From a virus, in IMG/VR virus record IMGVR_UViG_3300012982_000018, positions 2,423 to 66,422 of that record: 64,000 bases of DNA; one strand, given 5' to 3'. This document shows positions 46,301 to 63,672 of the stretch, piece after piece (position 1 is the stretch's first letter; the number at the start of each line of letters is the position of its first letter). The notes under the pieces were generated by a model. That model did not search any database. It worked only from the letters and a program-made list of their open reading frames with translations, and had not been told where the DNA came from. Position numbers and translations under genes: made by a program.

Positions 46301-46345
46301 GAAAGCACTTCTTATTCTTGAAGAAAGATTGCCTATGAATCCCAT
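43337..46345 (-). CDS. Portal protein (T4 gp20-like) with an intein (617 aa after splicing)
   Basis: YPLVSAALD, VVHFRL, EDAAFIYRLQRAPERFAYY, DDIYIP, DLEYFRQMMFAALKIPKAYLG. Confidence 0.92.
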   Translation of the reverse strand: MGFIGNLSSRIRSAFRRDKSRAAMQISKGATSAAPHGSFDLLQSYGHSALAEYLKQDQDILTRYVDYSEMNEYPLVSAALDLFADDASQTDIRTGRALWITSKNERIAEIGDKLFHKTLRIDEELWEIARTSAHMGNDYEEILVTNEGVIGLNYLPPETMRRIEGPRGELFGFIQDFTGKIGYTEDDFKKILDRRFDPNGGGEGGQYAGNSDFDLVSALEDWEVVHFRLRGSKRRSCYGLSQLEAARWIWKRLTLLEDAAFIYRLQRAPERFAYYVEIGDLPPPEALGFLNKVRQQNRKKKYINPATGKIDLKFDIISPSDDIYIPVRKGEASSKIEVLGAPSWQCLAGETKVPLLDGSSPTIKELSEREGEYWVYSVDKEGHIVPGRAHSARISNENAEVYEVVLDNDEKIVCTGNHPFLSRNGEWILAENLSTGTSLMPLYKRTSDKKLGDYLHGYEQVYDPSRDKYVYTHHAVYESIHGSPERLWKDGKIIHHVNHSKLDNRPDNLQGLSRKEHGKEHAEYVKYMHTPEAKERAAAAKRTPQYRKKVRALWKADTARQALHKARMVAHMSDPKQHKAASARLTAWNQSADHIQRVTGKKNARWVEMNVAQLAGVVSSAGAKSMRDLISRKVISQNVIEKVLKAEGITWSEFARVHIPGWVAKGRAASKNRKPVYKSQTERNREKQSRSLKNHKVVSVRKLDVRIPVYDLTVDEHHNFAIDAGVIVHNSVDDLEYFRQMMFAALKIPKAYLGMEEGVVRAVLSAQDVRFCRTILRLQSELKTGFDKVLRVHLSALGLDPFSEDYQIQMTVPSSIFELAQIEAENAKADLCARLGEFVSHHWMLSKILGFSDDDIELLFQQKKEDAVRIAEYQGEAQAKMQEILGASMEQNGVPPPGEQGGAAPPQGPQGPSGSPKVPPPPGAEALVQSIAKQNGAWIHGNGRPVGRFLSEKALFEGSRAGEQRAEAKLEKLLKNDLELAGRMKELSLLLSDLRQAMPRKF
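44156..45310 (-). mobile_element. Intein in the portal (385 aa), HNH type
   Basis: Starts CLAGETKV, block B TGNH, IHHVNHSKLDNRPDNL, ends VIVHN, +1 Ser. Confidence 0.92.
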
Positions 46346-46373: not shown

Positions 46374-48458
46374 CTAAAATCCCGATCCGTCTCGTCCATC
46401 GCTACCATCGCCTATCAAGAATGGAGGAAGCACATTATAGCTTGATCTGTTCTTCGCGGCTTGCGGATCTGCCGGTGTTGTAGGGATTATTGTGTTCACT
46501 GATGACGGCGATGATTCCGTATTGCCAGGATAATGCGAGATACTAGACATAATCGGTAGCGGAGTATTCAACTTCATCCCCGATAGTGCATAAACAGCCC
46601 CTGCCAGTGCATCTGCACAGTCCTTGCTCCCGCCTGCTCCCGCAGGGTGGTCAACCTTACCTTTAATCCAATTTACTTGAAGTTTACGTAATTCTTTTAG
46701 TAAAGGAGGATAGTCATAATAGATGACCCTGTTCTCATATAGAGCCATTTTTAGAGTTTCATATGGATCCATTTTTTTATCTATGGACTGGTAGACCGCA
46801 TTGTATCCCTGAGCGGACAGCTGCTGTATTGTATCCGTAGACTGATGCCCATCAATTGTGATAGATGTTATCGTGTAGCCGTGCGCACTAAGGTCATAAA
46901 CTATTTGCCTATTATCGGCCAACACTATTTCTCCTCCAACGGGAGGAACAATCTGAAGAACAAAGTCTACAACATATACAGGCGCCCTTTCCAGGTATTC
47001 TGTGCCGTCCGGTGCTCGCCGCTTTACATCCTTCCATCCGCCGATATGGGCCATGCACACACCAGTGTTATCGTTATTGATAGAAGGATCGAAATGTATT
47101 GCCCGACTTGCCGAAGGATTTAGAATCGGAACCGTCTTTCCAGTGTAGTTCGATAAACCTGTAGACGGCGCCATCGCGGGCCGGACCATTAGGTCCCAAC
47201 GGAACGAACCCCCCTTAGAGGAGTCGTAGGATATAGAGCTGAAAGGATGGATCCTAGTAGAGTCGATAGCATCTACGATCTTCTCACGTCTTTGGATGAA
47301 AGGTGTGACGCTTAAGGTCGACACGCCCCCCAAATCTCTAAGAGATCCCTCAAGATCTCGCTCAAAATCCGCTCTGAACTCCTCAGGGACATCAATGATG
47401 TAGCTACCCTCTGGCAAGTTCGCCTTTACCGAGTAAAGTTCTTCTTCCTTCTCATCTAGAATTCGAGAGAAAGTGGCTTCACTGCCAACTAGGACTTTGA
47501 ATCGCCCATTCGCATAGGCTTCCGGCTTTACGTCCCATAGCGCGAAATCTGCACAGAATATATGAGGATCTCCGGACTCTTTGGCCTCGCGAAGCCTCTT
47601 AGCGGTAAAGTCGTCTTCAGTCTGTTTAGAGGATACAAGAAATAGAATGCCCGGAAGCTTACCGCGGCGCTCGAAACGAGATTTCATACGACGCTTGATC
47701 AGAGTGTATATGGTCTCTGCGCGGTCTACATTCGCATTAGCGCCTTGCCGCGCCGATCCTTTGTTCCTGTTTAAGAAGTTACTTTCGTCGATAATGCCTG
47801 CAATGATGTTCAAACCTAGTGCGGACGTATCTGTAGTAGCCCGCGCAGTTACCCATATGTTGTTAGGAAACTTGATTTCCTTCTTAAGAATTTCAGGTGG
47901 AAAGTTCTCCTTGAAATAAGGGCTACCTGCTAACTTTACGGCTATATTCTCTAGAACTACTTTGATGGCCAAACCTTCGTTAACAGAGAGGCTAGCAATC
48001 GCAATCTGCGATTTATCTGCCAATCCGAAGGACTTTTGCGGATTCTTCATACATGAAAGCTCATAGATTGTTCTAATTAAACCTACCGCCGCACAAAATG
48101 TCTTGCCACTTCCGATGGATCCTGTAAATATAACCTCGTGATATATTCCACCCTCGAATAATTCAGATAAAACTTCTCTCCATTTTTTGTATAGGTCTCC
48201 ACACGTATCTCCGAGATAGTAGGGGTCTTCGAGAAATTGCTGCATGCTCACAAGCGGCGTCTTGTACTCCGCCCTCGTAAGCGCATTGAGAATAGTGGCC
48301 TCCTCCGTAGCGGATTCGGATGTCTGCAGTTCCTCCATCATCAATCTGAGGGTTTCCTGCTCTTCGGGCGTGAGAGTCTTAAGCTCTTTCTCAAGAGCCT
48401 TTCTCATCTCCTTTTCGGTCTGAATAGACCAAACGCGGCCATCCTTCTCGTAGATCAA
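46374..48458 (-). CDS. terL: Terminase large subunit
   Basis: Walker A GSIGSGKT, Walker B IIDE, nuclease HFDPS...and KDCADALAG; directly upstream of portal. Confidence 0.9.
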   Translation of the reverse strand: MIYEKDGRVWSIQTEKEMRKALEKELKTLTPEEQETLRLMMEELQTSESATEEATILNALTRAEYKTPLVSMQQFLEDPYYLGDTCGDLYKKWREVLSELFEGGIYHEVIFTGSIGSGKTFCAAVGLIRTIYELSCMKNPQKSFGLADKSQIAIASLSVNEGLAIKVVLENIAVKLAGSPYFKENFPPEILKKEIKFPNNIWVTARATTDTSALGLNIIAGIIDESNFLNRNKGSARQGANANVDRAETIYTLIKRRMKSRFERRGKLPGILFLVSSKQTEDDFTAKRLREAKESGDPHIFCADFALWDVKPEAYANGRFKVLVGSEATFSRILDEKEEELYSVKANLPEGSYIIDVPEEFRADFERDLEGSLRDLGGVSTLSVTPFIQRREKIVDAIDSTRIHPFSSISYDSSKGGSFRWDLMVRPAMAPSTGLSNYTGKTVPILNPSASRAIHFDPSINNDNTGVCMAHIGGWKDVKRRAPDGTEYLERAPVYVVDFVLQIVPPVGGEIVLADNRQIVYDLSAHGYTITSITIDGHQSTDTIQQLSAQGYNAVYQSIDKKMDPYETLKMALYENRVIYYDYPPLLKELRKLQVNWIKGKVDHPAGAGGSKDCADALAGAVYALSGMKLNTPLPIMSSISHYPGNTESSPSSVNTIIPTTPADPQAAKNRSSYNVLPPFLIGDGSDGRDGSGF

Positions 48459-49186
48459 GAGTCATCCTCTTCGTCTATAGCTTCCGCAGCCATATGTTCA
48501 AGCGAAGGCTCTGCCTCGGTTGAGGCCTCTTCGACGACTTCTTCGGCTTCCACATCAATAGGCTTCTTCGTCAAAGCTAGAAATTGCTGCGCGATCCCCA
48601 GCAGTTTCCTGCGAGACTCTGGATTCTCCATTACTTTGACGACTTCGGTGTTGTTATAGCGATGTTGAACATCCGCCATTACACGAGCATCTACATCGAT
48701 TTGTCCGAGGTGCCGTTTGGATAGACCCAAGTCCATCTTCAGTTGCGCTATGGCCTGCAGGATGTCCTTCGCTTGCTTTATTTCCTGCGGCATCGAAGTA
48801 AGTAGCTTGCCAATCTTTTTCTCATTGTTGAGGTCGATCTCAAGACGCTCCATCTGCTTCACATAGAGCTTCTGCATCTCCTCCAACTCGTCTATGGATT
48901 CTCTGACCTTATTCGCGGCCTTCGCAAATACTGGAGGCATCCGGCGACCAATCAATTCCGCCTTTGGAATCGTTTTACGGTAATCGTCCAACAGCCATAC
49001 CAGGCTTTCACGCTTGATTTCCGTGTACTCTTTTTTGTCTTCCTGAATGAAGTGCGCCACTTCCTTCAGGGGGTAGCCCTCACAAATCATATTGTGAGCC
49101 TCCTGGAAGCACTTCATCGCCCGAAACTTTACGAAGTTAGTTCCTCGGCTTACAGGTCGTACCGGACGCTTTTTGGGCATTTCCAT
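48455..49186 (-). CDS. Probable terminase small subunit
   Basis: HTH-like N-terminus (EGYPLKEVAHFI), helical middle, overlaps the terL start by 4 nt. Confidence 0.6.
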   Translation of the reverse strand: MEMPKKRPVRPVSRGTNFVKFRAMKCFQEAHNMICEGYPLKEVAHFIQEDKKEYTEIKRESLVWLLDDYRKTIPKAELIGRRMPPVFAKAANKVRESIDELEEMQKLYVKQMERLEIDLNNEKKIGKLLTSMPQEIKQAKDILQAIAQLKMDLGLSKRHLGQIDVDARVMADVQHRYNNTEVVKVMENPESRRKLLGIAQQFLALTKKPIDVEAEEVVEEASTEAEPSLEHMAAEAIDEEDDS

Positions 49187-49275: not shown

Positions 49276-52200
49276 TTACTTATCCGCCCACGTAGGTGCA
49301 ATATTTCCATCGCAAACTACCGGAACTTTCTTTAGAAAGGGCTGGATGCCCTCTTTCATGCCCTCTTCCAGGTCATGTTTGACCGCTTGCATTAGTTCCG
49401 GCTCGTCCTGGACTTCGAGAATGATTTCGTCGTGAACCATATGAACCATCTTCGCCTTGCCTTCGTATTTCTTCAATCGCTCATGAACACAATGCAATGA
49501 GCGTTTAAGTCCGTCCGCTCCTGTGCCTTGGACAGGCTGATTGTAGAATTCGTTATAGGCATCCTCGTCCATGAACCGGCGCCTTCCTCCGATCGTTCGC
49601 GTTTCCAATGTTCGCTTTCCATCCCGAAGAGCACGTTCGTGCCAAGCACTAATCGCCGGATAGCCGTCGAAATACCGCTGCCAGAACTTCTTCGCCTGAG
49701 CGAGGGTCATCGAAACGCCATAGTTGGTCTGAGCGTATATAACCAGCTTAGGAGGCATGAGACCGTACATGAGTCCGAAATTTATGCAATTATGCGTAAC
49801 ATAGATATTAGCTATGTACAAGTGGTCTTCTGTCTCAAGAGATAAGTCTATACACTGTGCCTCACCTAAAGGCACCACTTCGAGAATACAGTCTTCCAAT
49901 TGAGGCATAAACACTTTAGGCTCTCTGAGTCTTATGTTCTTACCTGGATGTCTAATGTAAGGTAGAACCTTAAAAGAGTCCGCTATAGTTAGCGATACTC
50001 TATAGTATAACTTTTCGTAAGTTTTGTTGTATGAGGGCTCTACCGAAGGTGAGAACCCACAGCCGTGCAGTAGTGTGCACAGCTGTCCCGCGAAGATAGG
50101 ATCTTTTGTTGTCACACTAAGGGTCCCGCTGCTCACAGTACCGTCCGTATCGCATAGCCCGCCGAAAAAGTGCATGAAAGCTTCCTTTCCAGCAGAAACG
50201 ATCCAACTAGGCACTCTGAATAACTTACTCCCTAAAACCCCCTCAACCAAACCCAAGCCCGCCAAGTAGCGCATGACTGCTCTGCTCCCCAGATAGACCT
50301 GTTCATCCCTGTTTACGGGTGTAAGCCCAATGTCTGTAGACGCCTCGTGCAATATCTGCTGCCAATATTTGTAAGGGACACCTAATTCATCTGTGTTACA
50401 GACGTCTCCATGAGTTAGTGCTACACTATGATCGCTTTGTTTTGCTCCGTCTCCTACAAACAATCCGGCAAAGTAGGCATGTTTGTGCGTAGGAATGCAA
50501 GCTAAGGGCGCTACGTCCTCCGACAATCGTATATACACAGGCTCGTAGCCGTAGTCCCCTAGCTTGAGGTCTGCTGTTTGCGCTGTTTTCAGCTTCTGTC
50601 CTTTCTTCAGATCCTTGGCGGCCACAAGAGAGCCATCTTGCAATTGTAATCTATGGGTCAGCGAACAAGTAATGAGCCCTCGTCGGGTTACAATCGTGAC
50701 TAGGGGTTTGACTCCTCCATTATATAAACTGTGCGCTCGCCCCACTCCTTTAGGAGTGGCAACTACTACATCAATGTCCGAGAACGCATCTTCCGCGCCT
50801 ACACGGCCTAAAGATCCGATAGTTTTCGGACGCCCGTTCACCCACACATAAGTATCCGGATGGACACACTTTGCAACTTGTCTTTCGTCTTTTGTTACAG
50901 CGTCAGGGCTTTTTTCCTGAACAAGTGCTGCAGTTAGTGCGTGGATATCCTTGTTAGCGTTATATGCAGATACTAAAGTAGGATCCCTGGATATTTCAGC
51001 CACTATCCTTAATTCGATCTGAGAGTAGTCCGCAATGACCAGTTTCGTTCCCTGTTCCCCCTTGAAACAATTCCTGAACTTTTTATCTCGTGGCAGCTGT
51101 TGAAGGTTCGGATTGCTCGAATTATGAACGATTATACCGTCGATCATAAAACACTGCGCTTCTTCTACTTCGATATCACAAGTTTCTTCTTCCAGAACAT
51201 ACTCGATACTTGTTACTTCGAAAGAAGTCAGCCCGTAATCATTCGCGTATCGAAGAAAAGCATTCGTCTCGGAATCTTCGTATAGAACGTCCTTCATAAA
51301 GGACAAGGCTTCTGCCGTAAGGTGCTGCGTCGCCTCCCCGCATAAACGCCACGCCTTGGTTTGCTCTTTGGTCGGTCCATGCCAGTCGTGCTTGGTCTTC
51401 AGTTTTTGATAAATCGGACTGAGATCTAACCACTCCGGCTTTCGAATCCCGGAGGCTATACCTCCTGTCTTCTGTATATCGGCAATTCTTGCCATTTTTC
51501 TTGTAGACCAAAATCCTATGTTAGCCATGAATATGCTTACAGATTCGGTACTGACCGTTAGAGTGTGTATTTTCAAGCCAACGTACTTAGATATTTTACC
51601 TTTGACGTTGAACGTGCTGTCGCGTGTAAGTGCGTTCTTTCGGTACTGGATACCAAAAGCGGATAGTAGTGTAGCCACTTCATCAATAAGCCGGGCGCTC
51701 GCCGAGCGTAGAGAAGGCACTCCGCCGCTGCTGGTGCCGTCGCCTTCAAACAATCCGCGTAGAAATGCGGCCTGAACAGATCTAGGGCTTGTAAAGATTT
51801 TAGGAGGGACTCGCTTTTCATGCGAATAGCCTCCACACCCTGAAGAAAGCAACCAAGCGCTGAGGGGCAAACTGTTGAACGAAAGTGTCGCACTAGGCGG
51901 CAAAGAGTACCGACCTCCAAGGCCCGCGCCAAAACACGATTTGTACTCCGCAAGCAGATAATCGCTTAGATCTTTTTCCTCATCACCAAGGGCTAGTATG
52001 ACTTTCGTCGGGACACTAGTTCCAACAGACCTGACAGCTGTCCGCGCGCTACCTTGTCGTTTCGGGCGCTGCTTATTGAAGCCTATACAACCTTCAGCTA
52101 CATAATGGCCAAGTATAAAAGCTACACGTTCATCGAGATACTTGGGAAACCTGATCGGCTTTCTTCCGGTGTCCTCCGCAGCTTCGATCTCAACATAGTC

Positions 52201-53463
52201 AGTGGTGTCCGGCCCTGCTGTAGAAGAGCCGTAGAGACTATCTCCGATCACTATGTCTTTGGCGCGAAGCCATCGGCCATTTACCAAAACCTGGTGCTCT
52301 TTCGTACACAACAACGTACGATCGCTTTTAGTTTTAAAACGAAGTAGTCCCTGCTTACCTTTGTCCCACCAGTTAAGCACCCGTCTTGGCCCTATGGGGG
52401 TTTGAACCGTGTCCCCTCTTATCACTTCACCGATGGGAATAATTCCCCTTCCAGTAACAACCTTTGACTTTTTAGGGATGCACGAATAACGTCCGGATAC
52501 GAGGAACGGATAATAAGAAGTATGTATTCTTCCGGTCTTGGGATTTATGTGTTCAAGATAGTCCATGCCAAAGGATTTTACAGCCTGCGCAACCCCTCTA
52601 TATTCCAGTACGTCTTTAATGACCGGATACTTACCAGCAAGCATCGCTAGCGTGGTTTCTTTTGTGTCGGGAACTTTCATGCCCAACATTTGAAGTGACT
52701 TAAGCAATTGTTCCGGAGAATCCAAGTTGAAGTCAGGTTCGAACCCTGGAAGCGCGATCTGCGGTTTAGGTGCAGGAAGGGCCTGAATGAGCTTCTGCCT
52801 CAATCGCTCTTTTTCGACCATATTCTTCTGAGCCAGCGTCGTCCATTCCTCCTTATCCAGATAGAATCCATTGAGTTCCATTACAGCTTCTGGAATGATC
52901 GCGTTGAACTCAATAAGAGCTGTAGCATTGAGGCCACCTGCCGATAGCTTCGTCTTCAGACTGTCACGCAACCTTGGGATGAAAATAACGTCCTCGGCTG
53001 CATACATGTACTGCTCCTCAGAAAGCGGTCCAGACCAATCGGACCCGCCCAAGTCCGGAGCTTGGGGCCCCATATTCAACTCACGCGCGTACAGGTCGTA
53101 GAGGTTGTTTCCTACTTTTTTTCCATTAGTAATTATTGCACTAGCTCGATACGTATCGAAGATACGTTTGAGTTCCAATCCGTACTTGTAAAGTAGGAAC
53201 TTGGCATCGAATTTTAGGTTCTGCCCAGCTACGATCGCTTTCGTATCCTTGAAAGCCTGTATAATAGGATCAAGTGTTTTAGTATGAAATACGTCTATTA
53301 CATATACGCCCTTACCGGTATTTATCGAGCATATTCTAATCTCGCTATCGAGCGGAGAGAGACCTGTAGTCTCTAAGTCCATCGTAATTAGTTCAGTTTG
53401 CTGCATCTCGGCAGCAATGTGCGACAGCCGGTCGGCCGACCGAACCACTTCATAATCAAGCAT
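49276..53463 (-). CDS. polA: Family A DNA polymerase (3'-5' exonuclease plus polymerase) with two inteins (581 aa after splicing)
   Basis: Exo DLETTGL / QNLKFD / YAAED; SGRYS|SSNPNLQQ, DYSQIELR, AK|CINFGLMYG, VHDEI. Confidence 0.93.
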   Translation of the reverse strand: MLDYEVVRSADRLSHIAAEMQQTELITMDLETTGLSPLDSEIRICSINTGKGVYVIDVFHTKTLDPIIQAFKDTKAIVAGQNLKFDAKFLLYKYGLELKRIFDTYRASAIITNGKKVGNNLYDLYARELNMGPQAPDLGGSDWSGPLSEEQYMYAAEDVIFIPRLRDSLKTKLSAGGLNATALIEFNAIIPEAVMELNGFYLDKEEWTTLAQKNMVEKERLRQKLIQALPAPKPQIALPGFEPDFNLDSPEQLLKSLQMLGMKVPDTKETTLAMLAGKYPVIKDVLEYRGVAQAVKSFGMDYLEHINPKTGRIHTSYYPFLVSGRYSCIPKKSKVVTGRGIIPIGEVIRGDTVQTPIGPRRVLNWWDKGKQGLLRFKTKSDRTLLCTKEHQVLVNGRWLRAKDIVIGDSLYGSSTAGPDTTDYVEIEAAEDTGRKPIRFPKYLDERVAFILGHYVAEGCIGFNKQRPKRQGSARTAVRSVGTSVPTKVILALGDEEKDLSDYLLAEYKSCFGAGLGGRYSLPPSATLSFNSLPLSAWLLSSGCGGYSHEKRVPPKIFTSPRSVQAAFLRGLFEGDGTSSGGVPSLRSASARLIDEVATLLSAFGIQYRKNALTRDSTFNVKGKISKYVGLKIHTLTVSTESVSIFMANIGFWSTRKMARIADIQKTGGIASGIRKPEWLDLSPIYQKLKTKHDWHGPTKEQTKAWRLCGEATQHLTAEALSFMKDVLYEDSETNAFLRYANDYGLTSFEVTSIEYVLEEETCDIEVEEAQCFMIDGIIVHNSSNPNLQQLPRDKKFRNCFKGEQGTKLVIADYSQIELRIVAEISRDPTLVSAYNANKDIHALTAALVQEKSPDAVTKDERQVAKCVHPDTYVWVNGRPKTIGSLGRVGAEDAFSDIDVVVATPKGVGRAHSLYNGGVKPLVTIVTRRGLITCSLTHRLQLQDGSLVAAKDLKKGQKLKTAQTADLKLGDYGYEPVYIRLSEDVAPLACIPTHKHAYFAGLFVGDGAKQSDHSVALTHGDVCNTDELGVPYKYWQQILHEASTDIGLTPVNRDEQVYLGSRAVMRYLAGLGLVEGVLGSKLFRVPSWIVSAGKEAFMHFFGGLCDTDGTVSSGTLSVTTKDPIFAGQLCTLLHGCGFSPSVEPSYNKTYEKLYYRVSLTIADSFKVLPYIRHPGKNIRLREPKVFMPQLEDCILEVVPLGEAQCIDLSLETEDHLYIANIYVTHNCINFGLMYGLMPPKLVIYAQTNYGVSMTLAQAKKFWQRYFDGYPAISAWHERALRDGKRTLETRTIGGRRRFMDEDAYNEFYNQPVQGTGADGLKRSLHCVHERLKKYEGKAKMVHMVHDEIILEVQDEPELMQAVKHDLEEGMKEGIQPFLKKVPVVCDGNIAPTWADK
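49789..50868 (-). mobile_element. Second polymerase intein (360 aa) in motif B
   Basis: Starts CVHPDT, FAGLFVGDG and FFGGLCDTDG, ends VTHN, +1 Cys. Confidence 0.92.
51121..52482 (-). mobile_element. First polymerase intein (454 aa)
   Basis: Starts CIPKKS, block B TKEH, ILGHYVAEG and LRGLFEGDG, ends IVHN, +1 Ser. Confidence 0.92.
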
Positions 53464-54269: not shown

Positions 54270-57200
54270 TTAGTATCCTAAGGGTTTAACATATTTATCG
54301 TACACCTCTGATTGGTCCGTGGCCATAACTACGAAGTCCTCTACTGGGACGTTGTTTACTTCGTCTAGACCCGCCTCCTTAAGTACTTTTATGAGAGTGG
54401 CCCTGTTGCTCTCGGATTGGCAAGTCACACGTAGAATTCTGGACGCTGCGATGCCTTTCCGGAAACAAGTCTCGGACACCGAACTAGACTTACTAAGCAA
54501 TTCTTTAAGAGGCTTTCTCTTGGTCCAGTTGTGACCATATGAAGAAAAGTCATTGGCTGCGCCATAGGCGTCATGCTCGTAACCATAAGTATCCAAGCGA
54601 TCCGCCTCATCCGGCGGAATAATGAATTGATAAGGCCCCCAGTTGGATAGACCTTCTCCCGCCGTCTTTTCCAACGCGGGCTTCGTATAGATGCTATCCG
54701 CGCCGCCAGAACTGATGTCCTGTGCGTTCGAGGTATCCGTTGCCGCGTTCACTCCTGCGAGCGTGCGTTCGTAGATCCCGACCAAACCGTAGCGCAAGAT
54801 ATTTACAATACGGGAAGGAGTACCTGAAGCTTGATAAAAGAAACGTAGCGCCGGTTTCCCTTGTTTAGTTGTAGCAAGCGTTTTCCATCGACCAGGGAGG
54901 ACATGGCTCACATGTCCGGGAAGAACTTCCCTAGTTTCGATGCTGTTCATCTCTTCATCTGTCGTACCGGCATCCTTCAAGTATTCCTTGAGCTTAGTAA
55001 CTGTATAATCCGCCGGTTTGAGCATCCTCGACTTTGTTGGGTTCTTGTCCCAAAGAAGGCGTGCGAGCTTCATTACGGCTTGTTCTTCAGCCGTCGGATC
55101 TCGCATAACCTCTTTGGCCAGCCCCGGAGACATCTTATCCAATAGAGCCTGTAGATGCTCTATTGCTTTGCCCTCTTCAGGAACACGGATTCTTGCTACT
55201 ACAGTGCCTATATACGCGGCGTGGGACTTTTCAGAAGAAGGCACGAAAAATGATTCTGAGCCTTCATGATCCCACTTGATTGCCGAAGTATTGAGGTTGT
55301 GGCCTGGTTGTTCCTGAAACGTGTCTGTTGACGGATTGTAGGTTGCATACGGAAGACGCAATATAGTATTCGTTGCCCCCTTTGGATGAAATTCCGGCCG
55401 TAGTTTGAATGCGAAAAGGAGATAGGGCTTTCCATTGGAGTCTTTGAATTTCTTTGCTTTTACGACCTGCCCTTCGACAGCCGCGCCTCCGATATGGTAG
55501 TGCTTGCCCAAAAAGCCTAGTTGTTCCTCCGGCGCCTTCTTCAATTCAGAAGCGTTAGGTTTGACCGGCGCATGTACAGCCACGCTGGGTTTATACAGCG
55601 GAGTATCCGGAGTAGAAGGTAAGTAGTCGGGGGAGGTAGATTGGGGAATTTCTTTAGTTAGTTTGGCCGCCTCAAATGCCTTCTTGTCCACGAAGGCCAT
55701 CACATATTGGCTTCCCTGTTTGATGGGAACGTTAGGCATTCCCACTTCTTCAAGTACCTTCTTAAGCTTTTCTCCATGCCCCTTCGGGAATTTGATCGTG
55801 AGCTTGTTAGGATCGGTTGCCCCCGACTTATCGGCAAATGGAGAGGTCTTCCCGCCGTTCTGGCCTATGACTTGAATAGCTGTGTATGTCTCCGTCTTGA
55901 CTTTAGGAACTCCGGTGTCCCACCCCGCAGTAAAGGTAAACTTACCGTTTTTCCCTGTTTTCTTCTTGTACAGATCCGTTATGAACTTTTCAAAGTCCTT
56001 CTTGATCGTATTTTTACGATTAATTGCTTTCTGGATGAATAGCGCCTGGTCATGTATGTTGTCCTTGTAGAAGGACTTAGCATAGGGAGTGACCGCCTCT
56101 TCGTAGGTCTTGTTCGGCAGGTCTACGATTTTCTGAATGACGGGGGCAAGCGATGAGGGATCGAACTCGAACTTTCCATCCGCCCAGTCTTTCCAGAACT
56201 TGTTGTAGTAGGGGGCGCTCTCCCCGTACTGCTCGGCGTTCGGCGCATAATCAACACTGAGCTTGTCCGTGTCGATGTACCTAAAAGCCTGGTCCTTATC
56301 GACTCCTACAATGTGCCCGGCCTTCGTCTTGAGAAGGTTCGCTCCGTGCGAGTCGTGTTGTGAAAACAACCAGTCAAGAATGTGTTCGGACGCCACATCA
56401 ACGCGCTCCGCCGCAGTCAGCTCGGCGGGCTCGACATTCGCAAGATTGGCAGGAGATCCCAGATCGAGCATGGGTTGAATCGTCCCAATCTGGCCCTCAA
56501 TATCTACCTTCTTGATAGGTACGTGATGCGGAAGTACAGAAAGCGCTACCTTCGAAAAGGCTTCTGCTGCGTCTGAGGAGAAAGCCTTGCTGTTGCCGCT
56601 TAGCTTTATTGCGGGCTTAAACAGCCACTCGTTTCCTTCCTTATCTGAGTATATTTTCTTTTGGAGAGCGCCACCTAGGAACTTAGCATCCTTCTTGAAT
56701 GTAAAGTCCTTAGTTACATCTGGTATGCTGAGATTCTTGTAGTGAGGCAAACCGCCCGTGGTGGTGGCCAATTCGGCATCTTTTACGAGGTCGCCAGGAA
56801 GGTTTACCGGGCCCTTAGAGTTAATCGCTGCTAAAACCGCAGGGTGCACGTCTACCCAGTCCGGGCCGTAAGCATCCTTCAGCGCAGCCGTAACCTTGTC
56901 CCACTTCGTAGATGAGGGATCTCCGGAGTTCATGGTCTTTAGGAGATTGAACTTATCCGTTAGATCTGCGCCATACTTCTCATGCATGGCGTGCATCATC
57001 TTGACAAAGACTTCAGACCCTTTAACCTCCCCGAATTTCTTCTTTAAGTGCTGCCAAACCGTTGCCCTATTACCCAACAATGCATAGTCTTCGGGAGAAA
57101 AATCTCCTGTCTCCCCAGGCAAAAACGGATTGAAGTCGCTAGGCGTGCTTTTCTTCGCAGAAGGAGGAGTCGTCGCTGACGGTTCTCCAATAGGTTTGGG

Positions 57201-60200
57201 CTTCTCTCCGGCAAGCGCCGCTAGTACTGTTGGATGGTTAGACCACCAGTGCGCTCCCCCCGGATAGGCCTTCTCTACCTCGGCCCTTGCGTTGGCTAAC
57301 TTTGCATCCGCATTACTGTCTTTAGTGACAAAATTACCATACGCAGCCTCCTCCTTAGCATAGGTATCCCCATATTTTTCATCCAAGTAGTATTTTAGCT
57401 TAGCCCAAGTGCTTGGGGATTTAGAAGAGATTTCCCGCCGATAGATCCACAGAAGAAAGTCCTCAGGATGCATCGTGTCTCCGATGTCCGCCTGAGTGAA
57501 GGACTTTATGGTACTGGGAGATCCTATCTGATAGGCGTCGGCACCTTTGCCTCCGGATAGGAACGGGCTAACCGATCCTTTCGTTACCGGCGGAGCCTCT
57601 CCTGCGATCGCCGCTTTGATGACAGGGTGCGTGGTGTACCAATCAGCACCATACGCGTTTTCCATTTCGGATAGGGCCTTCACCAAATCCTTCCCCGGGA
57701 CACCTGGGTTATCTCCCTTGAGAAGCACATTATCGCCGTACTTCTGCTTCATGTACGCCATGAGAGCGTCGTACATTTTATCGGCTTTCTGCTCCCCGAA
57801 CTGAGAGCCCCACTTTCCATAAAGCTGGTGGCGTTGGATGAGTATCGTGTAGTCTTCGGGGTGCATCCCTCCAATCTTGTCTACAGGCAGTGCGGTAACC
57901 TTCGACGGGGCGCCCGGAATGATGTCCTTCGCTGTCGGCGCAGGAAGCTCCTTGCCAACCATATCGGATAGGGCCGCTTGAATCGTCGGATGCTTCAGCT
58001 CCCATTCATGCCCGTACGCCGCCGCAAGCTCCTCGTACCCCTTATCCAAGGTCTTACTGAAAGACGTAGAGCCCATCTTCGAGCCGAGAAAGGCTTGCAT
58101 CGCATCTCGGTCCTCAATCCAGGAGGCCCCGTACTTATGGGCCATAAATGCATGAACCTTTGTAACCATGTCAAAAGACTTAGAGGAACCAAAAGTGTCC
58201 TTCCAAGTCTGCCTAATAAGAGGCAGTTTTGAGATGATGACAAAATCCTCAGGACTGAATTTGCCGGTATCCTTTTGCTTGAATGCTGTAATCTTCGACG
58301 GCTCGGGTATAGAAGTCTCGTTCGATTGCTTTGAGATCTCCGAATCCTTCTCAGCCTTCGCGATCTGATACTTAGCCAGATGCGGAGCTAACATCGGCAG
58401 AAGAGTTGCCCAACCTTCGCCGTATTTTTTCTCTAGAGTTTTTATCGCACTCGCTGCCTTAGCGTAATCAAGGCCTCCTTGCTTAGGATGCACATGGTTA
58501 GCCACAGCATCATAGATCTTTCCCGCCTCATAGTAGTCTATTCCTAAGGCATATAAGAGACTGTTTGGAATACTCGTACTCGCATAGCAAAAGAGAGCTT
58601 CTTCCGGAGAGACGCCCGACACTGTTGGCTTTATCAGTTGCTCGATATCCGCCAAGATTGCGGGCTTGCTCATCTCTGCGGGAGATGAGGCCGCAGCTTT
58701 TGGTGTAGCAGTCGCCGCCTTAGGGTCTTCGCCAGCGTATGCGGCCTTGAGCGTCGGGTGCGTCTCCGCCCATGCTGTTCCATACCCAGAAACTAGCTGA
58801 TCGTATACCTTATTTCTCAGCAAGTAGTAGTGGTGCTTACTTAGCGAAGCGGCCAGCTTCTCATCGATATCTTTCCACTTATCTTGCCAGCCTTCTCCGT
58901 ACTTCTTAGCCATGTACGCAAGAAGCTCTTTCACTCTATGGTTCGCAAACGTAAGCCCAGCTTTCGCTTTGAAGTGTTTGCGAATCATCATTATGTTATC
59001 GACGAGTGCGTAGTCTTCTTGTGAAAACGGTCCTAGATCCTGACCACCTAGCGCTGTTACAGCTGTAGGCTCCCCTTGTGCGGCGGGCTCTTCTGGGGTG
59101 GAGGTTGGTTCCGATTTAGCGGTCTTTAGTGCGTCAATGCCTGCCTTTACTGTAGGAACCTTTATGAACCAATTGGGGTCGCCTTCCGCATTGTACTTCT
59201 TCTTTAACCAATTTTGCCAGTCTTCAATATGCTTATTCCAACCTACAGTATCCAAAAGAGAGGTTAGTGTTTTGTTGTAATAGGAGAGAAGGCCCGCCCC
59301 GTACTTCTTCTTCATGTAGTCCTGAATGGCGGACTTCAACTCAATTTCGCCTACACCGTTCTCATCCGCAGCTTTGTCCAGCCAAGGCCCTGCAATACCA
59401 AGAACCGCATCGTCCATGTCGATCCCATGGTAATCGAAGTCCTTAGGGAAGAAGGGCGGCCATTCAGGATCGAACTTATCCGCAGGTTTCTCCGGAGGGT
59501 AGTGAAACGTAAATGTATCAGAATCGCCGTCCTTACTATTAAGGAATCCTTCTTTTTGGAGAGTATCAAGAATATGGTCTTTTAGACCATCGGACCCTAA
59601 CACTTCCTTGTTAAAGACCTTCGCTATGAAGTCTTTATCTACACTCCCGTGTTCCTCTGCGTGTTGTTTGATCCGCTCAACGGCCTTGGCTATCTCTTCG
59701 TTGCCGAAGTCCACCGCATTTGCGGCGGCAATGGCGGCTCCCGAAGGCTTGACCTCGGGCTCGTCCACAGGCTCTAAGCCGGGCCAATACAATTTGTCGC
59801 CTTTCTTGACAATCAAGTCAGTCGCATTCAACGAATCAAAGATCTTATTCGCTTCTTCGGCGGACATCAGTCCGCTCGACTCTGCCAACTTCACAAACAA
59901 GGCATGATCAACACCCTGCTCTGCATTGGCTTTTATAACTCCAAGTACTATCGCTAGTTTGTATTGCTCGCTAGGCTTAACGTTCAAGCCATCAATTACA
60001 TCCTGAACCTCAGGATCGACTTTGGGCGGAGGAGCGAACTTAACTTCTCCGCCTACTAAATGTATGAAACCCGCGGTCTTGAGCTTATCCAGCGCGCCAG
60101 TTACGGCCTTTTCGAACTCAGGGTGTTCTACCGACTCGGGGCTGGAGAACTTCTTGAAAAGGTCAAGGACCTCTTTTTGAGAAAGAGTCTTGCCAGTTTG

Positions 60201-61499
60201 CTGTAGCACCGTAAGAACCTTCGCTACTGTGCCATCCGGTTTCCAATTTAGTTCTTGAGCTATCGCGGCGGCCAGATCCGTTACTTCTTTTTGTTCAGGA
60301 GGAGCTTCTTTCGGTTCTTCGGAGGGCTTCTTATAGCTCCAACCCAGTGCGCTGCCACTCAACACCCCGGAGGCTGCTAATGCGTCGCCAAGTTCGGTGC
60401 TAATGTAGACAAGCTCCGCATCCGGGTCGACATTCGACGCTATATTAAGGACTTGGTGGATTTCTTTCGTAGAGAGAATCACCTCTGGGTTATCTGACAG
60501 ATATTGCAACAACTTAGAGAATGTACCGCCGGCAACCCAACCGGCAGCTATAGCCGCGATTTTGGTCTTATTCGAAGGCAGGGCTTCCCTTACTTTGGTC
60601 GCTATTTTCTCAAGCTTGCCATCGAGTTCCGAAGGTTCTTCCCCTTTTTCAGGTTCCGGTTCCCCTCCCTTCTTCGGCTCTGCCGTCCAATACTTCCACT
60701 TTTGGCCATCATGGACCAGAACACCTGCCTGCTTTAACTCAGGGTCTAGATCTTTAGGGTCATATGGATTCGTTTGATCGACGGCATAGCCCGAAGCTAA
60801 ATTCAAGATTTTATGCAGTTCGTCCGTGCTAAGAGCCAGTTCCGGGTGCTCCGCCCAGAAATGCATCAATTTTGCAAATGTGCCATGCTTTCCCCAATTT
60901 GCAGCCGCTGCCGCATCTTGGGCTCCAAAGCTAATATCATCCGATTTAATCGCCCCGACCTTACTCGCTATACTCGCCAACGACGCATCTGTGGCACTAG
61001 ATTGCGGTTCTTCTCCCTTTTCAGGTTGTTTCTCAGGCTCAGCTTCAGGCTCTTTTTCCGGCTGCTTCTCAGGTTCTGAAGCCTTTGTCTTCTCCGGCTC
61101 GGGTTCGGCTGCCTGCTTCTTCTTACCAGCGATCTTGTCGCCAGGCTTATGACCATAAGGAGCCGTTTCGCCCTTCTTGGTGACTTCCGACGAGTCCGGT
61201 TCTACCTCGACGTGTTCACTTCCAGCAGGTTCTACGTCTTCGGGCTTACCATAGTCCGGTCCAATGTAGCCAATGACCTTGTAGCCCTTCGGCGGTGTAA
61301 TCAGCTCATGATAGTGCTTATGCACCTCCTGATGGCGGATTTGCACCGGTTGAACCTTGGTGGGGTCCGTCTTTCGCCATTTGTATGCGAATACACGCGT
61401 AGGAGTGATCTTGTATATCGCAGCAGCTTCTGCTAAGTAACCCTCATAAATTGAGGGATCTCCTTCCAATAGCAGCGCTTCTTCGTCTATAGGGGTCAT
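54270..61499 (-). CDS. Giant polyvalent-type protein: wHTH array, helical repeats, kinase-like domain, ADP-ribosyltransferase-like domain
   Basis: 2409 aa; WLFKP...HDSHGANLL...VGVDKDQAF kinase pattern; C-terminal FYQ.S...IL.YGL...IYT...SETCF ART pattern. Confidence 0.8.
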   Translation of the reverse strand: MTPIDEEALLLEGDPSIYEGYLAEAAAIYKITPTRVFAYKWRKTDPTKVQPVQIRHQEVHKHYHELITPPKGYKVIGYIGPDYGKPEDVEPAGSEHVEVEPDSSEVTKKGETAPYGHKPGDKIAGKKKQAAEPEPEKTKASEPEKQPEKEPEAEPEKQPEKGEEPQSSATDASLASIASKVGAIKSDDISFGAQDAAAAANWGKHGTFAKLMHFWAEHPELALSTDELHKILNLASGYAVDQTNPYDPKDLDPELKQAGVLVHDGQKWKYWTAEPKKGGEPEPEKGEEPSELDGKLEKIATKVREALPSNKTKIAAIAAGWVAGGTFSKLLQYLSDNPEVILSTKEIHQVLNIASNVDPDAELVYISTELGDALAASGVLSGSALGWSYKKPSEEPKEAPPEQKEVTDLAAAIAQELNWKPDGTVAKVLTVLQQTGKTLSQKEVLDLFKKFSSPESVEHPEFEKAVTGALDKLKTAGFIHLVGGEVKFAPPPKVDPEVQDVIDGLNVKPSEQYKLAIVLGVIKANAEQGVDHALFVKLAESSGLMSAEEANKIFDSLNATDLIVKKGDKLYWPGLEPVDEPEVKPSGAAIAAANAVDFGNEEIAKAVERIKQHAEEHGSVDKDFIAKVFNKEVLGSDGLKDHILDTLQKEGFLNSKDGDSDTFTFHYPPEKPADKFDPEWPPFFPKDFDYHGIDMDDAVLGIAGPWLDKAADENGVGEIELKSAIQDYMKKKYGAGLLSYYNKTLTSLLDTVGWNKHIEDWQNWLKKKYNAEGDPNWFIKVPTVKAGIDALKTAKSEPTSTPEEPAAQGEPTAVTALGGQDLGPFSQEDYALVDNIMMIRKHFKAKAGLTFANHRVKELLAYMAKKYGEGWQDKWKDIDEKLAASLSKHHYYLLRNKVYDQLVSGYGTAWAETHPTLKAAYAGEDPKAATATPKAAASSPAEMSKPAILADIEQLIKPTVSGVSPEEALFCYASTSIPNSLLYALGIDYYEAGKIYDAVANHVHPKQGGLDYAKAASAIKTLEKKYGEGWATLLPMLAPHLAKYQIAKAEKDSEISKQSNETSIPEPSKITAFKQKDTGKFSPEDFVIISKLPLIRQTWKDTFGSSKSFDMVTKVHAFMAHKYGASWIEDRDAMQAFLGSKMGSTSFSKTLDKGYEELAAAYGHEWELKHPTIQAALSDMVGKELPAPTAKDIIPGAPSKVTALPVDKIGGMHPEDYTILIQRHQLYGKWGSQFGEQKADKMYDALMAYMKQKYGDNVLLKGDNPGVPGKDLVKALSEMENAYGADWYTTHPVIKAAIAGEAPPVTKGSVSPFLSGGKGADAYQIGSPSTIKSFTQADIGDTMHPEDFLLWIYRREISSKSPSTWAKLKYYLDEKYGDTYAKEEAAYGNFVTKDSNADAKLANARAEVEKAYPGGAHWWSNHPTVLAALAGEKPKPIGEPSATTPPSAKKSTPSDFNPFLPGETGDFSPEDYALLGNRATVWQHLKKKFGEVKGSEVFVKMMHAMHEKYGADLTDKFNLLKTMNSGDPSSTKWDKVTAALKDAYGPDWVDVHPAVLAAINSKGPVNLPGDLVKDAELATTTGGLPHYKNLSIPDVTKDFTFKKDAKFLGGALQKKIYSDKEGNEWLFKPAIKLSGNSKAFSSDAAEAFSKVALSVLPHHVPIKKVDIEGQIGTIQPMLDLGSPANLANVEPAELTAAERVDVASEHILDWLFSQHDSHGANLLKTKAGHIVGVDKDQAFRYIDTDKLSVDYAPNAEQYGESAPYYNKFWKDWADGKFEFDPSSLAPVIQKIVDLPNKTYEEAVTPYAKSFYKDNIHDQALFIQKAINRKNTIKKDFEKFITDLYKKKTGKNGKFTFTAGWDTGVPKVKTETYTAIQVIGQNGGKTSPFADKSGATDPNKLTIKFPKGHGEKLKKVLEEVGMPNVPIKQGSQYVMAFVDKKAFEAAKLTKEIPQSTSPDYLPSTPDTPLYKPSVAVHAPVKPNASELKKAPEEQLGFLGKHYHIGGAAVEGQVVKAKKFKDSNGKPYLLFAFKLRPEFHPKGATNTILRLPYATYNPSTDTFQEQPGHNLNTSAIKWDHEGSESFFVPSSEKSHAAYIGTVVARIRVPEEGKAIEHLQALLDKMSPGLAKEVMRDPTAEEQAVMKLARLLWDKNPTKSRMLKPADYTVTKLKEYLKDAGTTDEEMNSIETREVLPGHVSHVLPGRWKTLATTKQGKPALRFFYQASGTPSRIVNILRYGLVGIYERTLAGVNAATDTSNAQDISSGGADSIYTKPALEKTAGEGLSNWGPYQFIIPPDEADRLDTYGYEHDAYGAANDFSSYGHNWTKRKPLKELLSKSSSVSETCFRKGIAASRILRVTCQSESNRATLIKVLKEAGLDEVNNVPVEDFVVMATDQSEVYDKYVKPLGY

Positions 61500-61524: not shown

Positions 61525-63672
61525 TTACTCGTCATCCTCAATGGATGCGGAGTCGATTTCGGAATTTTGAAGACCCCCCTCTTCTGCAGTCTCCGCCATA
61601 CGCTTGAGCCGCGTTTCGGCTGTTCCCATATATGCCTTGGTGATGGGCTCCATAAAGTCATTGATGTCCTCTCCAGATTTTCGGCAATATTCAACTACCT
61701 TTTCCATAGCTTTTTTCATGGAGGGACTCATTGAAATATAGATATGATTTTTCCCTCCATGAGAAAATACCATAAAACTTTGGGATACTGTTTCTCCGTA
61801 GCGTTGAAACAGTGATTGGATTATTTTAGAGAGATCTTCTACTGTTTTTACCTCTTTGGCCGCATCATCGAACGCCGCCTGAAGTTCCTTTGGAAGGGCT
61901 TTCTTCATGCCCTTCTTTACACCAGAAACGAGCTTCTGGAAGGCTTTGCTGTCCGAGTAGCCTAATAGCTGCTGCATGGCCTCAGCGCCGTACTTATCCG
62001 CCAATTCGTTGTACAGGCTCAGGAACTTATCCGGGTCCATATCACCGTGTATGACGTTCGCGCGGACACTAGTGAATTTGCAATTAGATACAGCTATACC
62101 GTTCGCAATATAGGTGTGTTGGGGCTCAGTCTCTAGATTATATACCTTTGTTTTCACTAAGATTTTAGTACTGTTTTTAACAGACCGGGCTACTCCGTCT
62201 GCGGACACTTTTCTCTCACAGTCTTTAGCGTACGACCAGGAAATAGTCCAAACATCATTGCGATTTTCTCCCTTTTTTTCTCCTTTTGTAAAGCCTACTC
62301 CACAAGTAAGCCCTAGTGAACTGATCAACCATCTGAGTTGGTAGGCCAATTCTATTGATGTGGTTGTTATAACATTAGCTCCCTGTGACTCAGAGTGCCC
62401 GTCGCCTTCCGCTAGTCCTTGTAGGGCAGCAAGTCTTACTTCGTAGTTGGAATGGAATAATAATTCCTTAGGAAAATGTTTTTCTTTAGTTCTATGACCT
62501 ATTAGATTGGAAAGCCATTCGGAGACTTTTGCTCCAAAGGCACATACTCTAAAAGTATTTGGAGGCGACTCATATAGACTCGTTCTAATTCCTAGGCTTT
62601 CAAAAAACGCCTGTACTCTATGTAGACGCTCAATAAACCCTACTTGACAAACATCAACATCTGCCTCGCCGCTATGCGCTTCGGCGACCAAAAATCCTAT
62701 GACCCACGCAACCTCTGCGGTTATGTGGGCATCTGGAACACCTCTACACCGTTCGCGATATACGCGTTGCCAATCCTCGCCCCACGCCTTCCTAGCTGCA
62801 GCATGCTTGCTGCATAGGCCTCGTCCGCTAACTTGTAAATTACAATCGCTTACCTCGCACTTGTGCTTTCTGCCAGAAAAATATAGTATTCCTGACTCTA
62901 TTGGTGGAAAATCCTTGTTATTTGAACGTTTCCTGTTGTAGTCTCGCAAATAGCACCTATGACATAAACCATGCGCGTATATATCATCGCGACTACATCC
63001 CTTCACACTACAGTTTCCTTGCGTTCCTTCATCCAACATACGAAAAGCAGGAGATAAGTCATGGACCGCAGGTGGTTCGATATTCCCTCTAATAAGCTCA
63101 TAAGGAAAAAGAGCCGGCAAGGGCGAGATAACAACATCTCCGCGCCTAAGGTCCTTGGCAGGTATGAGTGTTTTTTCCCCGTTCGTAATTGTAAATATTC
63201 TATGGGAAGGTGTAACATGTAGGGGCTCGGGGCCGCTCTCGTAACTTAGTACGATAATTTCTCCTTCATAACTTCTTTCCATGACACCAATAACCGTAGC
63301 TTCCTCTCCATCGGTTCCAATTATTTTATCTCCAGACTTTATATTCTCTATGGGCACCCCTCCATTTAGAGTCTCTATTCGTGTGCCAGCAAGAAAACAA
63401 AGGTCCTCGTCCGCCCAACGCGAATCGCTAAGCACCATGCATGGAATTTCCGACAACCCTACAACCTTGGCCGCCTTCCACCGATGTTCTCCTCCGATAA
63501 TCCGATAACGTCCACTATCCAACGGGACCACTTGGATGGGGGCTATAAACCCCACTTCGGAAATCTCATCTACTAATCTATTGAACGCATCCGCGCTCAT
63601 TACGTTAGTGTTCCAATAGCTGGGTTCAAGTAAGTCTACGGATAAGTACTTTAGGTTATTTTGGTCTGACAT
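61525..63672 (-). CDS. ParB/Srx N-terminal-domain protein with an intein (276 aa after splicing)
   Basis: WNTNVM, GFIAPIQV, YRIIGGEHRWKAA; exteins join as DEDL-CKFTSVRANVIHG. Confidence 0.85.
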   Translation of the reverse strand: MSDQNNLKYLSVDLLEPSYWNTNVMSADAFNRLVDEISEVGFIAPIQVVPLDSGRYRIIGGEHRWKAAKVVGLSEIPCMVLSDSRWADEDLCFLAGTRIETLNGGVPIENIKSGDKIIGTDGEEATVIGVMERSYEGEIIVLSYESGPEPLHVTPSHRIFTITNGEKTLIPAKDLRRGDVVISPLPALFPYELIRGNIEPPAVHDLSPAFRMLDEGTQGNCSVKGCSRDDIYAHGLCHRCYLRDYNRKRSNNKDFPPIESGILYFSGRKHKCEVSDCNLQVSGRGLCSKHAAARKAWGEDWQRVYRERCRGVPDAHITAEVAWVIGFLVAEAHSGEADVDVCQVGFIERLHRVQAFFESLGIRTSLYESPPNTFRVCAFGAKVSEWLSNLIGHRTKEKHFPKELLFHSNYEVRLAALQGLAEGDGHSESQGANVITTTSIELAYQLRWLISSLGLTCGVGFTKGEKKGENRNDVWTISWSYAKDCERKVSADGVARSVKNSTKILVKTKVYNLETEPQHTYIANGIAVSNCKFTSVRANVIHGDMDPDKFLSLYNELADKYGAEAMQQLLGYSDSKAFQKLVSGVKKGMKKALPKELQAAFDDAAKEVKTVEDLSKIIQSLFQRYGETVSQSFMVFSHGGKNHIYISMSPSMKKAMEKVVEYCRKSGEDINDFMEPITKAYMGTAETRLKRMAETAEEGGLQNSEIDSASIEDDE
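62083..63399 (-). mobile_element. Intein in the ParB-like protein (439 aa), LAGLIDADG plus two zinc-finger repeats
   Basis: Starts CFLAGT, block B TPSH, VIGFLVAEA and LQGLAEGDG, ends IAVSN, +1 Cys. Confidence 0.9.

Follow-up and report, generated by a model that had tools for sequence, protein, structure and literature searches.

Head-packaged ADP-ribosyltransferases (ARTs) such as T4 Alt, together with MuF-type and polyvalent effectors, are known themes among phages, and the cassette described here adds to this theme of packaged effectors. The T4 protease gp21 and its homologues in giant phages cut after glutamate residues in short motifs, and gp21-type proteases strip the N-terminal capsid-targeting propeptides from proteins of the head interior and from those that are ejected, Alt among them (PMC9026906, PMC5694885). 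The C-terminal fusions of MuF, a head component, are regarded as virion-delivered toxins (PMC5576092, PMC9503650), and a short open reading frame (ORF) behind a MuF toxin gene is the usual signature of an immunity gene (PMC5576092). Kinases, ARTs, and MuF fusions have been described in a study of polyvalent proteins (PMC5512222) and in a survey of viral nicotinamide adenine dinucleotide (NAD+) and ADP-ribose functions (PMC9503650), and the roles of individual residues are established for DarT, which has a catalytic Glu (E160/E152) and an Arg (R51/R52) (PMC11543638). The present cassette forms the C-terminal end of a giant protein of 2409 residues encoded in a 64,000-nucleotide stretch of viral DNA (the window; positions 2,423 to 66,422 of the IMG/VR record IMGVR_UViG_3300012982_000018).

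The gene for the giant protein (P0001) occupies positions 54270–61499 on the minus strand as one unbroken reading frame, stop codon included, exactly where a first-pass annotation made from the sequence alone had placed it. It is the local version of a gene conserved in a clade of T4-like myoviruses, in which variable N-terminal two thirds carry a conserved cassette of 820 residues. As modelled, this cassette consists of an atypical kinase of the PI4K-II/CtkA type and a DarT-like ART, joined through two smaller domains. On balance, the evidence tilts towards the giant protein being a head-packaged, ejected two-enzyme effector that is restrained or escorted by a small partner protein; the analysis shows two enzyme folds with their catalytic-type residues kept, the wide distribution of the cassette, its fusion to MuF elsewhere, and an adjoining partner gene. 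In such an effector, the N-terminal leader would target the protein into the T4-type prohead, where a gp21-type protease would trim it at L-x-E sites, and the protein would be ejected together with the DNA. The kinase would spend ATP on a host substrate and the ART would use NAD+ to modify what is most likely a nucleic acid, since the ART is DarT-like; the outcome would be a block of host functions or of host defence, while the small partner would restrain or escort the enzyme in the producing cell.

Kinase and ART folds in the C-terminal cassette

Whole-protein searches with the giant protein returned no significant Pfam, NCBIfam, PHROG, or PDB sequence match, PDB profile searches with the alignments of its relatives gave nothing significant, and megablast against phage genomes gave zero matches. 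Structure predictions covered the C-terminal 820 residues and the last 421 residues. The 820-residue model, built from a 54-sequence alignment, has a predicted local distance difference test score (pLDDT) of 92.0 and a predicted template-modelling score (pTM) of 0.87, and its residues ~1590–1860 adopt a kinase fold of the PI4K-II/CtkA/HipA type in which the catalytic residues are kept and from which phosphotransfer is predicted. An exhaustive structural aligner placed PI4K-IIalpha at the top (Z 15.2, root-mean-square deviation (rmsd) 3.6, 230 aligned residues), and the next kinase-fold matches were CtkA (Z 13.2), Fam20 (12.2), actin-fragmin kinase and MavQ (11.6), and HipA (10.5). A Foldseek search of the PDB with the same model yielded 79 matches at E ≤ 1e-3, and the best 50 of these 79 are all protein kinases or PI3K/PI4K kinases. 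The key residues comprise a Gly-rich loop (1608–1614), K1628, the motif D1716-x-H1718-x-x-N1721, and D1734-K1735; among 54 relatives, K1735 is invariant (54/54), D1716 is kept in 50, K1628, N1721, and D1734 are each kept in 49, and the Gly-rich loop and H1718 are kept in 49–50. The giant protein has no Pfam match to PF00454 (PI3_PI4_kinase) or PF07804 (HipA_C); one relative matches PF00454 at 4.4e-5, and the mycobacteriophage protein Onyinye gp16 has a sub-threshold HipA_C match. UniProt labels some phage proteins ‘PI3K/PI4K catalytic domain’, and no functional study of phage kinases so labelled was found in the literature. Kinase folds can also perform AMPylation or glutamylation.

The model of the last 421 residues, built from a 74-sequence alignment (pLDDT 95.6, pTM 0.93), contains at residues ~2203–2409 an ART fold that is nearest to DarT and for which ADP-ribosyl transfer is predicted. 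Four DarT structures align with it at Z 10.7, 10.7, 9.4, and 8.8, and the next families, CopC/OspC3, Tpt1, and SopF, follow at 6.2–6.8. DarT1 is the top Foldseek match of the ART model (E 3.4e-3), a search of the AlphaFold database (AFDB) returns first uncharacterised proteins that share the whole 400-residue module and then DarT/DUF4433 proteins, and a DarT cluster of the ESM Atlas aligns with the domain at a template-modelling (TM) score of 0.72 and an rmsd of 3.1 over 181 residues. E2343 is found in all 74 sequences and R2245 in 72 of them, and G2265, R2301, and D2310 are also invariant. The kinase-pattern domain and the C-terminal ART-pattern domain of the first-pass annotation, whose reading had hinged on the appearance of these folds in structure searches, were both recovered in this way. 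As a separate observation, the Atlas search aligns DUF3626, which co-occurs with the same kinase, structurally with the DarT-like domain (152 residues, TM 0.56); DUF3626 may thus far have gone unnoticed as a family with an ART fold.

Two smaller domains connect the enzymes (Table 1). The position of the first, next to the kinase, is taken by a Rho_N/SAP-like segment in those relatives in which the cassette is fused to MuF. In three such proteins (L036, L045, L005) a Rho_N (SAP-like) nucleic-acid-binding motif lies at ~643–679, between the kinase and the ART module, which hints that the cassette may meet nucleic acid. The second, beta-rich and helical part has no clear known fold (best Z 4.6), and two free-standing proteins (P0104, P0130) consist of this part and the ART domain and nothing else.

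Table 1. Features of the giant protein and the adjoining ORF, with positions in the window.
Feature	Residues	Positions	Strand	Basis
N-terminal leader, candidate capsid-targeting propeptide	1–25	61425..61499	(-)	[LI]-x-E-[AG] sites LLEG 10, IYEG 17, LAEA 22
Small N-terminal domain, conserved in the clade	~26–90	61230..61424	(-)	directly after L-x-E-[AV] site; ends in D/T-P-P motif
Acidic Pro/Glu/Lys-rich linker	~91–167	60999..61229	(-)	translation and composition
Two homologous ~100-residue units, winged-helix-like by pattern only	168–270, 290–389	60333..60998	(-)	self-comparison
Further candidate units of winged helix-turn-helix (wHTH)-like type	390–720	59340..60332	(-)	marginal third unit; sub-threshold Pfam matches
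Seven copies of a ~95–105-residue repeat	723–1562	56814..59333	(-)	self-built profile; spacing ~100–137 residues
Atypical protein-kinase-like domain	~1590–1860	55920..56732	(-)	model, structure searches, residue conservation
Small alpha/beta linker domain	~1861–1953	55641..55919	(-)	820-residue model; weak Ig_TgrO1 match, E 8e-4
Beta-rich domain and helical segment	~1983–2185	54945..55553	(-)	always alongside the ART domain
DarT-like ART fold	~2203–2409	54273..54893	(-)	model, structure searches, residue conservation
Partner ORF, candidate immunity, inhibitor, or chaperone protein	143 residues	53834..54265	(-)	starts 4 nt past the stop codon of the giant gene

Distribution of the cassette and its pairing of enzymes

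An exhaustive profile-free search with residues 1590–2409 identified 1609 representative clusters (50% identity) at E ≤ 1e-3, 265 of them at E ≤ 1e-30; a word-index protein search had found a single full-length relative, and it is the exhaustive search that shows the family to be common. Both the kinase and the ART domain are present in 118 of the 151 relatives examined, and the whole 820-residue module is located at the C-terminus of about one hundred proteins of 959–4395 residues. An artefactual fusion of two genes was considered as an explanation of the giant protein and rejected, because these relatives all end in the same cassette. Between the giant protein and its relative P0002, conservation is confined to the C-terminal ~850 residues (36% identity); cassette identity across the giant clade is 36–42%, and the N-terminal part varies in length and sequence.

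The loci of the relatives, 80 viral and five from bacterial or candidate phyla radiation (CPR) metagenome-assembled genomes (MAGs), present the cassette in two main settings. In the giant clade, about 25 loci share the order ParB, giant gene, variable small genes, PolA, a 243-residue protein, terminase, and T4-type portal, preceded upstream by helicase, RecA, RuvC, and SSB, and this fixed order identifies the giant gene as a core gene of the myovirus clade. The MuF-type setting occurs on more than 40 viral contigs of phages unrelated to the giant clade, where proteins of ~1140 residues carry MuF (PF04233) at about residues 200–310, then the kinase, the Rho_N/SAP-like segment, and the beta/helical/ART module; PF04233 is present in the cassette relatives L005, L008, L036, and L045. 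A 3639-residue giant ORF (L018/L090, IMGVR_UViG_3300033070_001349) contains two copies of the kinase, one at residues 363–640 and one at the start of the cassette. Two relatives of the ART module (L004, L007) come from contigs assigned to MAGs of Saccharimonadales and Collierbacteria (CPR), and Saccharimonadota also appear in Atlas clusters; phages of CPR bacteria may be among the carriers.

The kinase is also found without the ART of the cassette, in proteins with the polyvalent hallmarks PBECR5, InPase, NUDIX, and mCpol. Among 25 kinase-only representatives, the ART families beside the kinase are PF03496 (three proteins), DUF3626 (three), ART-PolyVal (one), and DRAT (one), and in other proteins the kinase co-occurs with the ADP-ribose-processing domains NUDIX and 2H, as in the relative P0111, which is composed of NUDIX, DUF3626, and kinase. 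A tblastn search against deposited phages matched only residues 1608–1844, in mycobacteriophage proteins annotated as ‘minor capsid protein and ADP-ribosyltransferase fusion’ or ‘ADP-ribosyltransferase’; these proteins end in a true PF03496 ART, and the kinase match lies upstream of it. The recurrence of the kinase–ART pairing with different ARTs argues for functional coupling. The kinase is found beside at least five ART-type families (DarT-like, PF03496, DUF3626, ART-PolyVal, and DRAT) and beside ADP-ribose-processing domains. It is conceivable, though doubtful, that the kinase and ART are an obligate coupled pair, which together with the partner would make up a widespread and so far undescribed phage-delivered system of nucleic-acid ADP-ribosylation mirroring the DarTG defence. 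In such a pair, the kinase might make the substrate ready, for instance through phosphorylation of a nucleic-acid end to which ADP-ribose is then added; it might change the ADP-ribose adduct and so shield it from host hydrolases; or it might gate the ART.

A conserved partner gene downstream of the ART

The giant gene, as in the pattern reported for MuF toxins, is adjoined by a small ORF, here of 143 residues and 4 nt downstream. Iterative search collected its homologues (~110–150 residues), and in 70 of 78 loci (24 of 29 in the giant clade and 46 of 49 of the MuF type) such a homologue is the next gene downstream of the one that bears the ART, mostly overlapping the upstream stop by 4 nt. The partner ORF has no Pfam, PHROG, or PDB match, its homologues share no invariant residue, and an ESM-Atlas feature search with it was uninformative; the lack of an invariant residue and of a family match suits a binding protein (immunity protein, inhibitor, or chaperone) better than a hydrolase. 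The candidates macrodomain, NADAR, and ARH hydrolase were rejected for the partner on the same two grounds, and no Macro, NADAR, or ARH match was found in the 98-kb record, which is an estimated 51% complete. Both the partner gene and the fixed place of the giant gene in the replication block had escaped the first-pass annotation. In one locus (L089:6449-8029), the giant gene is directly followed by a gene for a 526-residue protein that combines the partner domain with a P-loop kinase of the Zeta-toxin/AAA_33 type, a second kinase linked to the cassette and unrelated to the first.

The small conserved ORF that stands behind the toxin-like ART in 70 of 78 loci is also what would be expected of a polymorphic-toxin-type module with its immunity protein. 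Such a module would serve mainly in competition, by killing or arresting cells without the immunity protein, by shutting out superinfecting phages, or by steering the choice between lysis and lysogeny, and not in takeover of the host during the phage’s own infection. The MuF fusions match the pattern of MuF polymorphic toxins, and free-standing ART-only and kinase-only versions exist; however, MuF toxins have been reported almost only from temperate phages (PMC5576092), whereas the giant clade consists of apparently lytic T4-like myoviruses in which the gene belongs to the fixed core and is not a variable cassette. As the C-terminal cassette is moreover conserved and not polymorphic (36–42% identity across the clade), a role of this kind appears quite improbable for the giant protein.

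Proposed packaging and injection

Three [LI]-x-E-[AG] sites of the giant protein fall within residues 10–25, and four are spread over the other 2384 residues. Across 20 clade members, the motif is observed 24 times in the first 100 residues against 3.8 expected, making it ~6 times denser there; given the shortness of the L-x-E motif and the kinship of the clade members, this enrichment statistic overstates independence. Immediately ahead of the small conserved N-terminal domain stands an L-x-E-[AV] site that is kept across the clade, and the L-x-E-[AV] sites of the leader fit the gp21-type cleavage pattern and may be cleaved in this manner. The same contig encodes a Peptidase_S77 (gp21-type) prohead protease, a Gp23-type capsid protein, Portal_T4, a tail sheath, and a tape measure protein. 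From the cassette–MuF fusion elsewhere, the T4-type head machinery, and the L-x-E-rich N-terminal leader, we infer that head packaging and injection of the giant protein are plausible, and it is to this degree that the ‘injected effector’ of the first-pass annotation holds.

The Gp23-type capsid protein (36599–38101) has a single [LI]-x-E-[AGSV] site, LLEG at residues 33–36, which is identical to residues 10–13 of the giant protein. This site falls in the N-terminal propeptide region, ahead of the Gp23 model match, which begins at residue 77, and it may mark a propeptide cleavage site.

Several observations weigh against a packaged two-enzyme effector, the limited independence of the leader statistic among them. 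A Pfam scan found no PF04233 MuF in the giant protein, whose gene sits in the replication block (ParB–giant–PolA), away from the head genes. The strand-1 His of the H-Y-E type NAD+ site is Gln (Q2223) in the giant protein and variable across the family (H in 17, N in 16, and W in 14 of 74 sequences), so that NAD+ binding is not assured. The PF14487 (DarT) model has no match on the giant protein or in a six-frame search of the genome, and an hhalign comparison of the ART sub-alignment with five DarT sequences taken from Oscillospiraceae genomes is not significant (E 0.018, probability 2.6%), which is why the domain is called DarT-like and not a member of the DarT family; though of low confidence, this alignment has a sensible register, in which Q2223 falls at the strand-1 His of DarT and the catalytic Arg and Glu are matched by R2245 and E2343, respectively.

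The position of the gene would suit an unpackaged enzyme of the replication block, made in the infected cell, that ADP-ribosylates phage DNA for protection or host DNA to stop its replication, with the kinase processing the adduct or substrate and the partner limiting harm to phage replication. DarT enzymes act on single-stranded DNA (PMC11543638), the wHTH-like units could bind DNA, the kinase stands beside ADP-ribose-processing NUDIX and 2H domains in other proteins, and the order helicase–RecA–RuvC–SSB–ParB–giant–PolA is fixed in about 25 loci. However, the cassette is fused to the head component MuF in many other phages, and an enzyme acting in the cytoplasm would have no need of a conserved leader with protease-type sites. 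In T4, alt and the genes for internal proteins likewise map outside the head gene cluster, as the giant gene does, so that position is a weak argument. A cytoplasmic role of this kind is judged unlikely, and packaging of the giant protein is preferred.

The N-terminal two thirds

Beyond the leader, the small N-terminal domain (residues ~26–90) has no match in a Pfam search. The N-terminal acidic linkers noted in the first-pass annotation are visible in the translation, the first at residues ~91–167 and a second, likewise Pro/Glu/Lys-rich, at about residues 276–291. Of the ‘about five winged-helix-like units’ proposed there, two are demonstrably repeats of one another (168–270 and 290–389; 38% identity, E 8e-14 by chunked self-BLAST and a self-built profile), but a possible third (409–448) is marginal at E 0.45 and the rest have no sequence support, the wHTH Pfam matches being all sub-threshold (HTH_33 E 0.3, MksE E 0.25). 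The five to seven helical repeats of ~105 residues fared better, as a self-built profile recovers seven copies, starting at residues 723 (weak), 823, 960, 1078, 1209, 1341, and 1464, with pairwise E values down to 1e-14 and the motif pattern S/H-P-E-D-Y/F ... K-Y-G ... W ... H-P; the repeats are predicted to be helical. The only PHROG match on the giant protein, a tiny one to phrog_21045 at residues 894–918, lies within these repeats, and ESM-Atlas feature searches with the wHTH region and the helical repeats were uninformative.

The very large size, the repeats, and the acidic linkers would be in keeping with a protein that mainly serves structure inside the head or organises DNA and that retains its enzyme-like domains as inactive relics, and so would the variable residue at the strand-1 NAD+ position. 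However, catalytic-type residues are invariant or nearly so in both domains across 54–74 diverse sequences, and it is the enzyme cassette that is conserved and the putative structural part that varies, which makes such a protein very improbable.

The source phage and neighbouring genes

The window belongs to one viral contig of 98,187 bp with an estimated completeness of ~51%, nearly all of whose genes are on the minus strand. Judged from the neighbouring genes, the source phage is a T4-like myovirus. The upstream neighbour of the giant gene encodes an intein-bearing ParB-N protein, and downstream follow two small ORFs and then an apparently intein-bearing family-A DNA polymerase, the large terminase, and a T4-type portal. 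Several oversized core genes on the minus strand (61525–63672, 49276–53463, 43337–46345, 38130–40865, and 18893–22960) are apparently interrupted. ParB and the portal have intein-splicing matches plus LAGLIDADG or HNH domains, the polymerase, prohead protease, and ribonucleotide reductase are of unusual length with split family matches (the reductase with an HNH match), and inteins are found in the polymerase, terminase, portal, and helicase of clade relatives. In almost every locus of the clade, the large terminase gene has immediately upstream of it the gene for the 243-residue protein (48455–49186 in the window), which belongs to no known family and may by its position be a small terminase subunit.

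Novelty and significance

A cassette of a PI4K-like kinase and a DarT-like ART, or a partner protein of this kind, was not found in the two studies of polyvalent proteins and viral NAD+/ADP-ribose functions (PMC5512222, PMC9503650) or in wider literature searches. The ‘undescribed combination’ claimed by the first-pass annotation stands in that no describing paper was found, but metagenomic phages carry the cassette very commonly, and kinase and ART are already joined in mycobacteriophage genomes on deposit, where the annotation reads only ‘ADP-ribosyltransferase’. What the cassette adds is a large unannotated family that no Pfam model covers (1609 clusters at 50% identity), an ART clade of DarT-like type borne by phages instead of host defence systems, and an atypical kinase family that is repeatedly paired with several ART families, together with a conserved small cognate protein. 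Should DNA or RNA be what the ART modifies, phages would turn the anti-phage chemistry of DarTG on the host, and should the kinase share that substrate or adduct, the two steps would amount to a new kind of modification. With 820 residues and a 143-residue partner the cassette is compact, its models are of high confidence, and it provides annotators with names for ‘hypothetical’ domains in many phage genomes, including those of mycobacteriophages in which only the ART is annotated.

Comparison with known systems

The DarT enzymes of DarTG (PF14487; 8baq, 7omu, 7omv, 7yk3) are the nearest solved fold to the ART domain, whose invariant Glu and near-invariant Arg fall at the positions of the DarT catalytic Glu and Arg in an alignment of low confidence. 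Unlike DarT, the domain lacks sequence-level membership of the family, carries Gln in place of the strand-1 His, is preceded by ~200 residues of additional beta/helical domains and by the kinase, and has an unrelated small partner in place of the DarG macrodomain/NADAR; it is phage-encoded and not part of a host defence system. PI4K-IIalpha, Helicobacter CtkA, and HipA resemble the kinase in the D-x-H-x-x-N loop followed by a metal-binding Asp, in the Gly-rich loop, and in the Lys, and the giant protein differs from them in having no Pfam match. The Pseudomonas syringae protein HopAG1 (PMC9963460), an injected ART-like and NUDIX effector, recalls the relative P0111, but is a type III effector and not a phage protein.

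Polyvalent proteins (Iyer et al. 2017, PMC5512222), known from phages and from conjugative elements, are likewise giant multidomain proteins with several macromolecule-modifying enzymes and are predicted to be virion-borne. Their hallmark domains (PBECR5, InPase, ART-PolyVal) sit in proteins that share the kinase, whereas the giant protein itself has no hallmark Pfam domain. The polyvalent paper presents kinases and ARTs as separate components, and its ART is of the H-Y-D Tox-ART-HYD2 type (PMC5512222); the polyvalent kinase is described as having no C-terminal lobe, whereas a helical C-lobe is modelled in the giant protein, a difference that sets the two kinases apart by description only.

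The MuF polymorphic toxins and MuF–ART fusions (Jamet et al. 2017, PMC5576092) are similar in that cassette relatives are fused to PF04233 and that a small ORF follows the toxin gene. The mycobacteriophage MuF–ART fusions (BK061310 gp56, Onyinye gp16) share the kinase at 24–29% identity, with E values as low as 1e-20, and likewise have an ART at the C-terminus; their ART is PF03496 (C3/VIP2-like) and not DarT-like, and the giant protein has no MuF. The mycobacteriophage records leave the kinase domain unannotated, and PMC5576092 mentions no kinase.

T4 Alt, which is packaged in the head and injected, is an ART of the R-S-E (Alt/VIP2) type of ~70–75 kDa without a kinase, whereas the giant protein is DarT-like with no PF03496 match, is ~3.5 times larger, contains a kinase and repeat arrays, and is packaged only by inference. 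The likeness to Alt lies in the T4-type head, with its gp21-type protease, Gp23, and gp20-type portal, and in an ART-fold enzyme whose leader carries protease-type sites.

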